Assembly (NCBI GenBank): GCA_963696295.1
Contig: CAVOJR010000001.1
Location: 96,001-160,000 of the forward strand
Origin: an uncultured Chlamydiae bacterium
Lineage (GTDB): Bacteria > Chlamydiota > Chlamydiia > Chlamydiales > JAJFMB01
DNA length: 64,000 nt
Direction: 5' to 3'
Made by a program: the position numbers and the translations under genes
Notes under the pieces: model-generated
Seen by the model: the letters and a program-made list of their open reading frames with translations, nothing else
Databases searched by the model: none
Told to the model about the DNA's origin: nothing
In this document: one piece after another, positions 18,113-22,692 of the stretch
How positions within the stretch are numbered: the stretch's first letter is position 1
Layout of the letters: each line of letters opens with the position of its first letter

Positions 18113-18142
18113 GCCACCCCCCTAAATAAAAAAGGGGGGGGC
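18113..18142. terminator. GC hairpin between convergent genes
   Basis: GCCACCCCCC-TAAATAAAAAA-GGGGGGGGC. Confidence 0.5.
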
Positions 18143-19275
18143 TAAGATACCAGCCGGCGGAGAAACTCTTCACATTTAGCCAGCTGTTCCAGGGTCACAA
18201 ATTCATTCGGTTTGTGCGCCTCCATGATGCTTCCCGGCCCGCACACGATAGTGGGAATGCCCGCCTTTTGAAATAAGCCGGCTTCTGTAGCATAGGAAAC
18301 TTTTCTGATCGCGGTCTCCTTTGCGGCTTCACGGGCAGCCTTAGTTATCCCGGCCTCTTCAGAAGCCTGAAAAGCCGGAATTTTGCCTATGGATTCTATC
18401 TCGATAGAGGCATCCGGAGACTCTTTACGCATTTCAGGCAATAAATGTTCCTTCACATAGGCATTAATTTGCGCATAGATTTGATCGGGATCCGCATCAG
18501 GCAAATTGCGAAATTCAAAAAGGAACTCAAGAAAAGCGGGAATGGTATTCACGGCGATCCCGCCAGAAATCATATTGCTAGTCAGGCTTGTAAAGGGCAC
18601 ATCATACAAATTATCCTGAACCTCTTTAAGCCGGCCGGCATATTCCCTCAGCCAGCAGATTAGTTTAGCCGCGTGTTCAATGGCATTGCACCCTTTTGGC
18701 GTTAGGGAGGAATGGGCGGCATGCCCATGCACATGGCACCGAAAGCAATTAATCCCCTTATGTGCCACAACCGGAACCATTTCCGTAGGCTCCCCGACAA
18801 TGCAGGCAGCCGGTTGAATGCCATGCTGCTGAAAATCAGCAATGAGCAAAGGGGCGCCCAAGCACCCGACCTCTTCATCGTAAGAGAAAGCGAAATGGAG
18901 GGGCTGGCGCAGCCGTTGAAATTCGGGAATCAGCGATAAGACGACGGCGATAAAGCCCTTCATATCGCAAGCGCCTCGGCCATAAATCCGGCCGTTTTTC
19001 TCTGCCCCGCAAAAAGGGTCGGTATCCCAGACCTGCCCGTCGACCGGGACAACATCAGTATGCCCTGAGAGGAGGAGCCCCCCCTGCAAGGAGCCGTCAT
19101 GGGCGGGAAGAGAGGCAAAAAGGTTGGCTTTTTTCCCGGTGGAATCATAAGTGCGGCGGACTGCAATGCCCGGCCGGTCGAGCCAATTGCCGATGAAATC
19201 GATCAGGGGCAGATTGGAGTTACGCGATGTGGTATCAAAGGCGATCAGCTTACTCAGCCATTCTTTACTGTTCAT
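18142..19275 (-). CDS. argE: Acetylornithine deacetylase (M20 family)
   Basis: LIAFDTTSRNSNL, SGHTDVVP, GRGACDMKGF, YDEEVGC, VGEPT, TEAGLF, CGPGSI.EAHKPNE. Confidence 0.88.
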   Translation of the reverse strand: MNSKEWLSKLIAFDTTSRNSNLPLIDFIGNWLDRPGIAVRRTYDSTGKKANLFASLPAHDGSLQGGLLLSGHTDVVPVDGQVWDTDPFCGAEKNGRIYGRGACDMKGFIAVVLSLIPEFQRLRQPLHFAFSYDEEVGCLGAPLLIADFQQHGIQPAACIVGEPTEMVPVVAHKGINCFRCHVHGHAAHSSLTPKGCNAIEHAAKLICWLREYAGRLKEVQDNLYDVPFTSLTSNMISGGIAVNTIPAFLEFLFEFRNLPDADPDQIYAQINAYVKEHLLPEMRKESPDASIEIESIGKIPAFQASEEAGITKAAREAAKETAIRKVSYATEAGLFQKAGIPTIVCGPGSIMEAHKPNEFVTLEQLAKCEEFLRRLVS

Positions 19276-19343
19276 GTTTTTTTCCTTTTCTGAATGTTAG
19301 CAAAAATCGGATTTTAAAGCAGAGCAGATGCTCTGCTTCCCGT

Positions 19344-19988
19344 TCATTTAAAATACAAAACTCTTCCCTCGTACTCCGAATCTTCTGTCACGATCGGGTT
19401 CATGAAAAGGTTGTTTGCTATGCGAGCCATCGGAGACTCGTTGTGCGTGCGCACGACCATGTTCCATCCTAACTCATTGGCCTTCCGAAGGAAGAACCTA
19501 GAGATTTCCGTGGCGACGCGTTGCTGCCTGGCTTTAGTATCCACCATGACTTCAGACAAATAAAAAAAGGTTTCCCCCTTCCCCTTTAAAACCGTCCCTA
19601 TCATGTTCCGCATATCTTCCGTGTTGTATTTCGCTCTAAGATCTTGAATCCCGCACGAAAAACCCCAGCCGGCGGCATACACCTTTCCCTCTTCATCTTC
19701 AAACGAGATAAGGGTCCCATCTGTTTTACCGACCTCTTCGGCTATTTTTTCGGAGGTCTGCTCTACCGGATAGGCTTCGGCCAGCTTCTGCTGGCATTTG
19801 ACGCAAATCTCCAGAACCCCTCTTCCGGAGAAGTGGCGGTTAGGGCAGACTGTGACTTCGTTCCACGGAGGATCGGCGAACACGTCAGCATACAGCCTGG
19901 CGATTTTCTCCAGCTTTTGAGGCGACGGTACCGCGGTGTATTCGACCGGTTTTAACAGGCCGAGGTTTGGGATGTTTATACTATTCAT
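19344..19988 (-). CDS. GNAT-family N-acetyltransferase-like protein with a Cys/His (Zn-ribbon-like) insert
   Basis: YADVFADPPWNE, CPNRH..CVKC, FYLSEVMVDTKARQQRVA (motif A); the ATG overlaps the symporter stop, GGAG RBS. Confidence 0.7.
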   Translation of the reverse strand: MNSINIPNLGLLKPVEYTAVPSPQKLEKIARLYADVFADPPWNEVTVCPNRHFSGRGVLEICVKCQQKLAEAYPVEQTSEKIAEEVGKTDGTLISFEDEEGKVYAAGWGFSCGIQDLRAKYNTEDMRNMIGTVLKGKGETFFYLSEVMVDTKARQQRVATEISRFFLRKANELGWNMVVRTHNESPMARIANNLFMNPIVTEDSEYEGRVLYFK

Positions 19989-21184
19989 TTTGGGTTCTCC
20001 TTTTTTTATAATTTTCTGCAAGCGCAAAGCCCAGGCCAAATCCGGCCAGGGAGAGCAGGATGCTCAATATTTCCCGGGGTACGGGCAGCGGCATAAAGCG
20101 AAGCAAAACAAATCCTAAAGCACCGCCTATGACCGCAAACAAAGCCGAAAGAAAGCGCCCCTCTTTGTTAATCAAGGCGAAAACAATCGGCACAAAAAGA
20201 CAACTGACCGACAATTCAAAACTTTGAACTAAAATGTCGATGATGCTGTCAAAACAGAAAGCAAACAAGATCGCTCCAAACGAGAGCCCAGTCGTGATCT
20301 TGCGCACGAGTTTCATGTCGGAAATCGACTTAAAATCGTTGAACAGATTTGAGCTGATCGCATTGATCAAAGAGGTGGCTGTGGAGATGACCGCCGCTAA
20401 AATGGCGCACCCCACAATGGCTGCAAACTTGGGGCCGGTAGTCGCCTCGATGGCCGTCATAAGCACGCTGGCTCCTGCGGGAACATCGATATCTAATGAC
20501 CTGGCAAGCACCCCAAAAAAGACGGGCACCACGCAAACGGCCATCATGATCATCCCCGCCAGGAAGGTTGCCCGCGAGACAATTTGAGGCGACCCTCCGG
20601 CAAAACACCTTTGCCCCATGTCTTGTTCCGTCACGGCAAAAAACAGCGGCATTAAAAGCCACCCGCATAATTTGGGGGAGACGTCGCTAAAAGCCCCCGG
20701 GTGCGGGACAAAGACCCCCTCGTTCTTCGAAACCATGAAAAAGCAGGCCAGAAAGACCACCGAAAAAAAGGCGGCTTGCACCATATCGGTCGAAATCACC
20801 GCTCTCAATCCCCCTTGAGCCGTGTAAAAAATCACAATGGCCCAAAAGAGGAGAAAAAGGGGGGTGCTCGTTAATCCCAGGCTCACTAAAAATTTGTGCG
20901 AGGCTATGATCTGAGCGACAAGGATCATAAATAAGGACACAATAGATAAAATAGAGGCAGTCTGCTTCAATCGTTTTGACTGATAGACCACTTCAAAAAG
21001 TTCGGCGATGGTGGAAACGGAAAACTCCGAAAGCTTTCTTCCCACTCCGCAGCCCAAAACAATCAGGCCCAAAGCGGCACCAAATGGGTACAATATGACC
21101 GCCCATCCGAACCGGTAAGCTTCCTCAGAAGCCCCTAGAATAACCCCTCCGCCCACTTTCGTGGCCAGAAAAGTCATCATCAAG

Positions 21185-22333: not shown

Positions 22334-22503
22334 ATCATCAAGGGAAAAAGCGCGACACTTTTTCCCGCCAAAAAATAATCCTCTTTCCCAAGAGTCTTAT
22401 TGGAAGAGTATCTGCCAACCAGCCAATAAAACCCCTGAAGACAAAACATCACCATTATAAAAAAAGACAAACTCATTTTATTATTCCTTCATAAAGCCAA
22501 ATG

Positions 22504-22531
22504 AAAAACGACAGCACAAAGCATTGCGCCG
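22504..22531 (-). terminator. Putative attenuator/terminator hairpin upstream of the SSS symporter
   Basis: Minus strand CGGCGCAA-TGCT-TTGTGCTG followed by TCGTTTTT, ~30 nt before the symporter ATG. Confidence 0.5.
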
Positions 22532-22587
22532 ATTAGTTTCTCGTAGCTTGATTCAAATATTTATAAAAAAAAAATTAGGGTGCGGAA

Positions 22588-22692
22588 TTACCGCGCATGA
22601 TGGCAATGATGATGCCGATGGGAAGAAGGGAAAAGGATGGAATTATTTTGTGATTGACAACACAATCTCTTAAAGCTGCTTGTGGTGTTCAT
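22588..22692 (-). CDS. His-rich leader peptide (hisL-like), 34 aa
   Basis: MNTTSSFKRLCCQSQNNSILFPSSHRHHHCHHAR*; AAGGT RBS 6 nt upstream; six CAT codons within eight, just before the stop; followed by a U10 tract and a hairpin. Confidence 0.75.
   Translation of the reverse strand: MNTTSSFKRLCCQSQNNSILFPSSHRHHHCHHAR

Follow-up and report, generated by a model that had tools for sequence, protein, structure and literature searches.

How might a chlamydial cell that apparently cannot make histidine (His) sense that histidine is running short, and which genes would it then switch on? The question is raised by a 64,000-nucleotide (nt) stretch of DNA from an uncultured Chlamydiae bacterium (assembly GCA_963696295.1, contig CAVOJR010000001.1, positions 96,001 to 160,000), here called the window, in which a 34-codon upstream open reading frame (uORF) with a tail of His codons lies ahead of genes for an SSS-family symporter, a GNAT-fold acetyltransferase and an ArgE-family deacylase. 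Chlamydiae have few regulators. We find that this uORF belongs to a family of His-codon leaders spread across the phylum. Our preferred reading, which we hold at a probability of roughly 0.6, is that the leaders switch on histidine supply, probably by means of a Rho loading site that is masked by a stalled ribosome.

The leader and the elements around it, in the order in which they would be transcribed, are as follows.

22737..22765, minus strand: predicted sigma66-type promoter, TTGCTT-17-TAAAAT with an extended -10 TG, read from the sequence
22699..22703, minus strand: ribosome-binding site (RBS) AAGGT of the leader, 6 nt 5′ of its ATG
22588..22692, minus strand: putative His-sensing leader uORF of 34 codons, with 6 His among the last 10 codons
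22597..22647, minus strand: C/U-rich, G-poor tract and His codons, a predicted Rho loading (rut) site within the uORF
22582..22594, minus strand: GCGG/CCGC stem of 4 bp spanning the leader stop codon
22565..22574, minus strand: U10 run, read from the sequence
22504..22531, minus strand: hairpin with an interrupted U tract, a weak terminator or pause site that is not switchable in folding

The uORF ends in the codons CAT CGG CAT CAT CAT TGC CAT CAT GCG CGG TAA, and the C/U tract proper (22647-22621, minus strand) lies 5′ of the His codons. These elements, from the uORF and its RBS to the tract, stem, U10 run and hairpin, had been described in the original prediction and all are present. The promoter matches the consensus at 8 of 12 positions, which is under the threshold of the promoter scanner; transcription would be predicted to start near 22730. 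Among the 25,159 ATG-initiated open reading frames of 15-60 amino acids in the whole genome, the leader is the only one with at least five His in its last 10 codons; this most His-rich tail of the genome’s small reading frames is not due to chance. The leader has no Rfam, NCBIfam or Pfam match (Rfam gave seven matches at E≤10, none of them to a His-leader family), its overall fold stability is unremarkable (z = -1.26), and the GCGG/CCGC stem is not a general feature of the leader family. A second His leader was not found in this genome, where the candidates were embedded in coding genes or had no gene following them. The genome, which is 97% complete, gave no match for hisD or hisG and none for histidine ammonia-lyase.

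If the leader is functional, His-codon runs should recur upstream of orthologous symporter genes, and they do. The SSS search gave matches in 151 of 400 scored genomes, with 150 of the 159 matches listed; among those listed, 149 loci lie outside this genome, and removing four with short upstream sequence and one duplicate left 144. A leader was scored as an ATG-initiated frame of 15-60 amino acids with at least three His in its last 12 codons and a stop 30-300 nt before the gene start. Such a uORF lies directly upstream at 74 loci (one of which, L161, is doubtful and was left out of later tests) and at the operon head, behind intervening genes, at seven more, giving 81/144. The same rule applied to the reverse strand found 0/144, and 5 of 1,115 other genes in this genome pass it. 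Counted by genome, 80 of 139 carry a leader, and 21 of the 26 families do. Their presence changes at least 14 times on well-supported branches, although kin are not independent. The His residues are confined almost wholly to the last 14 codons, with only five among the 1,610 residues upstream of these in the 81 leaders. A pattern scan of genome contigs for the locus found two loci only. At L005 and L034, imperfect tandem repeats of ~59 nt with long T runs adjoin the His leader on its upstream side, ~400-190 nt upstream of the SSS start.

The leader is not limited to the symporter. Tracing the other locations of the GNAT gene led to an unrelated polar-amino-acid ABC importer. One of the best 30 hits (of 116 genomes) was dropped, and of the 29 loci left, 25 are headed by the same leader, against 1/29 on the reverse strand. 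The SSS gene and the close form of this ABC importer co-occur in 10 genomes, where 27 would be expected. In addition, the leader heads a purH-hisI-hisG-hisE-hisD operon in all five genomes that carry hisG among the 400 searched; the gene families were confirmed at one of these five loci. The organisms are thus nearly all His auxotrophs. We therefore see three regulated target classes, the SSS symporter, the ABC importer and the his operon, and all of them tie the leader to histidine. These targets strongly support the original prediction of a His-codon leader that controls histidine-supply genes, and we consider it very likely that the leader family responds to histidine shortage; we infer that the uORF is translated. 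The five genomes with a purH-first his operon (L232-L236) are themselves unusual in a phylum of auxotrophs.

The composition of the transporter itself points the same way. Leader-bearing SSS proteins contain 0.20% His, about 8-fold less than a set of 60 comparable membrane proteins from this genome (1.57%), and 40 of 74 contain no His at all. His is the sole depleted residue, with all others at 0.77-fold or more. In leaderless SSS orthologues the value is 0.46%. The SSS protein is likely an importer of histidine or a histidine derivative, and this strongly supports as likely the cargo that had been proposed for it. Intact SSS orthologues do not reach the equivalog scores of PutP (23-49 versus 515) or PanF (36-64 versus 328). 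The leader thus provides a testable substrate for a transporter family labelled ‘proline permease’.

That label is carried by CPn0486 of C. pneumoniae, called a ‘putative proline permease’ (PMC3333780, PMC5723314), and it looks wrong. The small-genome family f4 appears to be the Chlamydiaceae, and one of its loci, L142, shares the layout of CPn0486: a neighbour of 543 amino acids, a gap of 325 nt and a frame of 460 amino acids. The transcription start listed for CPn0486 at 567946 (PMC3333780, supplementary table) maps at L142 to a point 7 nt after a TATAAT box. This start lies 27 nt upstream of the uORF ATG, and therefore the uORF of this locus falls inside the mapped 5′ leader. The parts of the supplement that were consulted do not list a separate leader transcript (PMC3333780). 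In the f4 loci L128-L155, the last 13 codons of the uORF, ~200-85 nt upstream of the SSS gene, are conserved with mostly synonymous changes, possibly an arrest-peptide-like form.

How would the leader act? C/U-rich, G-poor composition is the signature used to spot Rho sites. Across the 81 leaders, the 30 nt before the first His codon are 75% pyrimidine and 9% G, the His run is 6% G, and the 30 nt that follow are 50% U. In the window, the predicted rut stretch holds 19 T, 18 C and 3 G in 52 nt, and the last 60 nt of the leader contain 16 YC dimers, a number reached by 1.5% of random 60-mers of the genome. This bias extends to positions that do not change the peptide: four-fold third positions in the 3′ part of the leaders are 83% pyrimidine (546/657), whereas the figure is 56% for SSS genes and 49% for the 5′ part of these leaders; the ABC leaders behave alike (160/190). 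Because synonymous choices carry the pyrimidine bias, selection acts on the leader RNA. A ribosome that stalls at the His codons would cover the tract with its footprint, and rho is encoded here as well as in 199 of 200 genomes of the phylum. Rho is probably the effector. When histidine is plentiful, the ribosome would complete the uORF and release at its stop codon, leaving the C/U tract exposed; Rho would then load and stop the polymerase within the U-rich spacer or soon after the first gene begins. When His-tRNA is scarce, a ribosome stalled on the His codons would mask the tract and RNA polymerase would read through. The hairpin in the window would serve as a pause or back-up stop.

Two other ways of using the same leader have to be weighed. 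In classical hisL-type attenuation, which the original prediction had placed on the hairpin at 22531-22504, the ribosome would choose between a terminator and an antiterminator, or it would suppress weak terminators directly. The window does have a hairpin (22531-22512, minus strand, -9.4 kcal/mol) whose interrupted U tract runs to 22504, the end of the leader could form a -9.6 kcal/mol duplex with the 5′ arm of this hairpin, and hairpin-plus-U elements exceed shuffled controls across the family (20, 7 and 1 of 81 leaders at -4, -7 and -10 kcal/mol, versus 3.6, 1.0 and 0.0). However, the terminator helix has a pairing probability of 0.98-1.00 in all eight modelled ribosome states (absent, at each His codon, at the stop codon); because it forms at every ribosome position, an antiterminator switch in the window is rejected on folding. 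Elsewhere, 61 of the 81 leaders lack such a hairpin even at -4 kcal/mol, and the spacers between leader and gene range from 39 to 280 nt. We consider classical attenuation unlikely; a switch of the Rho type agrees better with the features that are conserved. Alternatively, the sensing may be translational: the C/U tract and His codons would pair with the transporter RBS, a stalled ribosome would free it, and Rho would act secondarily on untranslated mRNA. Pyrimidine tracts are able to pair with purine-rich RBS regions, under the footprint of a stalled ribosome the mean cost of opening the RBS falls from 8.0 to 5.9 kcal/mol (computed for 72 of 76 leaders), and the mycobacterial poly-Cys leaders, first proposed to be Rho-dependent (PMC1262725), were later reported to free a sequestered RBS (bioRxiv 10.1101/834739). 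Covariation, however, is missing: cognate duplexes are hardly distinct from cross-family ones (-7.85 versus -7.58; mean rank 0.50 and 0.46; n=76). RBS regions without an adjacent leader pair equally well (p 0.53), and with a ribosome at the stop codon the RBS opens still more readily (4.7). RBS release as the main route is likewise improbable.

The peptide itself may instead be what matters. A nascent arrest peptide could sense free histidine or another metabolite, as in TnaC or SpeFL, and this is most plausible in f4, where the end of the peptide is conserved in frame despite having few His: in 17 distinct rows anchored on three codons, there are 12 variable columns at third positions versus 4 and 5 at the others. 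Outside f4, however, the peptide is unconserved apart from His and pyrimidine-coded residues, with no phylum-wide arrest-peptide motif, and the targets are supply genes, which fits a starvation signal read at the His codons. As a general explanation we regard arrest as quite improbable. The original prediction had also offered a metal-binding peptide. Such a microprotein or metal sensor would have no link to histidine supply, and a His/Cys-rich tail (Cys occurs within the last 14 codons of 28 of the 81 leaders) would suit such a role. Yet the same leader heads a his operon and two His-depleted amino-acid importers, and its synonymous sites are constrained towards pyrimidines; given these targets and this constraint, the metal-binding explanation is very unlikely indeed.

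Masking of a Rho site by a ribosome stalled at His codons is thus the reading that we favour, and several points weigh against it or narrow it. The strict leader criterion is failed by 63 of the 144 SSS loci, the uORFs of f4 mostly keep one to three His and in most cases only one or two, and the five his operons, with their common gene order, probably have a single origin. Leader loss and His gain in the SSS protein go together in 5.4 independent pairs and oppose each other in 0.5, which is not significant (median p 0.125). The C/U richness is the compositional signature of a predicted rut site, and it could instead keep the RNA unfolded or slow the polymerase; the history of the poly-Cys leaders may likewise caution against a Rho reading. 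Intrinsic termination may contribute, because weak hairpin-plus-U elements exceed shuffles and two of the five his-operon leaders have one, and there may be a translational share, because in 29 of 72 leaders the footprint of a His-stalled ribosome makes the RBS easier to open by more than 2 kcal/mol. As for the genes behind the symporter, the ArgE-family protein is not His-poor (12 His of 377 residues), and SSS-GNAT-ArgE had to be rejected as a conserved unit, since it recurs at one other of 149 loci, 142 of which have at least 1,500 nt downstream.

In the window itself, the system is a damaged copy. The symporter ATG at 22476 opens a frame of only 69 amino acids, because an IS5-family insertion sequence (IS) has entered the SSS gene after codon 47. 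The genes downstream of the leader are the following.

22334..22476, minus strand: 5′ piece of the SSS symporter gene, ~47 codons, matching orthologue N-termini and ending in the left target duplication
21185..22333, minus strand: IS5-family insertion sequence of 1,149 bp
19981..21184, minus strand: 3′ piece of the SSS gene, starting with the right target duplication (21184-21176) and holding an open 400-amino-acid frame from 21183
19344..19988, minus strand: GNAT-fold acetyltransferase of 214 amino acids with 2 His and conserved Cys residues (possible Zn site)
18142..19275, minus strand: ArgE-family M20 deacylase of 377 amino acids

The assignment to the IS5 family is based on a DDE transposase (22210-21257) that scores 298 bits with NF033579 against a cut-off of 140, on 23-nt terminal inverted repeats with two mismatches, and on a perfect 9-bp target duplication (22342-22334 and 21184-21176). 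It is the single full copy of the element in the genome. The 3′ piece of the SSS gene still matches PF00474 (E 1.4e-18, 67.5 bits versus a gathering score of 22.8) and is 70% identical to an intact orthologue of the same family. It could yield a shortened protein, because the 400-amino-acid frame is open and a weak RBS is supplied by the end of the IS. The symporter start, the GNAT overlap (the GNAT ATG at 19988 overlaps the last 8 nt of the symporter) and an ArgE gene about 70 bp further on (68 nt after the GNAT stop) had all been called correctly. The symporter gene had thus been recognized, and its interruption by the IS had gone unstated, merely hinted at by mention of a ‘reconstructed’ symporter. 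Since the transposase points in the direction of the operon, the GNAT and ArgE genes may be transcribed from the IS and may be partly uncoupled from the leader here. The alternative ABC importer was not found in this genome, and for an apparent His auxotroph whose leader-linked importer is split, how histidine is obtained becomes the question.

A second, inner inverted repeat lies at each end of the IS (22293-22333 and 21185-21225), so that the element looks double-ended, or as if it sat within a miniature element. Two soil metagenome DNA runs contain pieces with at least 99% identity to the IS, along with one short, less similar piece; these two runs cover IS pieces only. On the other side of the leader, reading frames of 74 and 399 amino acids (22807-23031 and 23218-24417, minus strand) have no Pfam or NCBIfam match and are single-copy in the genome. 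At one SSS locus in another genome (L103:4688-5662), a gene for a poly(ADP-ribose) glycohydrolase macro-domain protein overlaps the SSS stop codon.

What do the acetyltransferase and deacylase contribute? The window’s GNAT protein has no Pfam or NCBIfam match of its own; 9 of the 11 proteins in its family match PF00583/PF13673 weakly, and its predicted model (pLDDT confidence score 91) has N-acetyltransferases as top fold matches. On the strength of these relatives, the model and the fold search, the GNAT fold is confirmed. The family occurs in 6 of 401 genomes and lies inside a His-leader operon in four of them, twice behind the SSS gene and twice behind the ABC importer, where each protein has only one or two His; the two leaderless copies hold five to six. 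The GNAT protein is therefore likely to be part of the histidine response. ArgE follows GNAT in all four of these operons, as a fragment behind a shortened GNAT in one. The acetylase/deacylase pair proposed in the original prediction does belong to a His-leader operon, as a rare accessory whose ArgE member shows no His depletion. That the pair serves histidine salvage is a tentative suggestion; our best guess, and a doubtful one, has ArgE releasing L-His from N-acylated or peptide-bound histidine. Conversion of D- to L-forms by an N-acyl racemase of the enolase type, an enzyme known from Geobacillus, was rejected, as this genome has no PF02746 match.

Other accessory genes are found elsewhere. 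Thirteen SSS loci, spread over nine families, encode a racemase, frequently accompanied by an unknown protein and a VanX-like peptidase; 12 of the 13 loci pass the leader rule and the thirteenth has a leader further upstream. At these loci (L160:2206-5860, L163, L177, L179, L182, L098, L114, L116, L123, L158, L040, L100 and L107), the set comprises an Asp/Glu-type racemase, a His-poor protein of 270-330 amino acids without a family and the VanX-like peptidase, in varying gene order; the unknown protein gave low scores only in an Atlas search. As a best guess, the accessory enzymes point to salvage of histidine from acylated, peptide or D-forms. In L171, the remnant of a racemase 5′-end lies between the leader and the SSS gene, ~100 nt upstream of the latter, which suggests accessory gene loss. 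At L194:197-6752 (G140), a leaderless GNAT gene is divergent from an amino-acid ABC operon, and hisS-like and histidine ammonia-lyase-like (hutH-like) genes flank it.

Taken together as one picture, which we put forward tentatively and judge rather less than even in its entirety, the Chlamydiota may harbour a hidden histidine regulon that uses no repressor, T-box or hairpin switch, in which the His and adjoining codons of one short uORF double as a Rho site, this uORF has come to precede any genes that supply histidine (the SSS importer, the ABC importer or the his operon), exchangeable salvage enzymes accompany it (GNAT and ArgE here; a racemase, a VanX-like peptidase and an unknown enzyme elsewhere) and mark an undescribed route of L-His recovery from D-, N-acyl or peptide forms, and a peptide-conserved uORF survives in the leader of Chlamydia CPn0486. 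Present in 21 of the 26 families sampled, the His leader would give the phylum a clear amino-acid attenuator. It would also be a simple test case of attenuation, since the hungry codons would supply the very bases of the Rho site, and it flags uncharacterised histidine-salvage enzymes. Surveys of His attenuators, in the parts consulted, report no chlamydial cases (PMC9413887, PMC2965389, PMC4833913), and TrpL of C. trachomatis, the one annotated chlamydial leader peptide, is described as an atypical case that lacks validation (PMC7755916). A search of the open literature found no published chlamydial His leader; subscription attenuator surveys outside that search may bear on novelty.

Comparison with known systems places the leader between several types. 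Like the enterobacterial hisL, it is a short uORF that has its own RBS, ends in tandem His codons and precedes genes of histidine biosynthesis or transport, with the same starvation logic; the predicted His attenuators of the Bacillus cereus group, Eubacteriales and Erysipelotrichales are similar in this respect (PMC9413887, PMC2965389). In contrast to hisL, the chlamydial leaders have no conserved pair of mutually exclusive terminator and antiterminator and no Rfam His-leader match, their targets include SSS and ABC importers, and the phylum is different. The mycobacterial poly-Cys uORFs share a run of cognate codons near the stop, the lack of a conserved terminator hairpin and several operons per leader type, a ‘ribulon’ (PMC1262725); here the amino acid and phylum differ and RBS covariation is missing. 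Among the downstream proteins, the chlamydial SSS has the PF00474 fold of PutP, PanF and the SSS domain of CbrA, the last of which is reported to transport L-His (PMC7918813), and differs from them in scoring far below cut-offs, in standing alone, in its His depletion and in its link to a His leader. The window ArgE passes the cut-off for acetylornithine deacetylase (TIGR01892, 372 bits versus 298) and that of NF005710 (551 versus 412), and the GNAT model matches arylalkylamine, polyamine and phosphinothricin N-acetyltransferases (TM scores ~0.5-0.6) at 8-16% identity to the listed structures; unlike those enzymes, this pair lies behind a His leader and a transporter, and its GNAT family is small.

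With the Rho-dependent uORF attenuators cruR (Bordetella pertussis), tnaC and speFL, where stalling of the ribosome hides a C>G rut site (PMC9426467, PMC12360218), the leaders share a C-rich, G-poor tract within the ribosome footprint and a genome that encodes rho. The nearest of these precedents is cruR, whose rut site lies inside the uORF and whose importer target is shut off when the nutrient is present (PMC9426467). Rho dependence is demonstrated for those three and is suggested here by composition; in addition, their ribosomes are halted by an arrest peptide together with a free ligand, whereas the chlamydial ribosome would stall at hungry His codons, which belong to the C/U tract itself. 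On this comparison, the chlamydial leader appears to resemble hisL in its logic and cruR in its likely mechanics.

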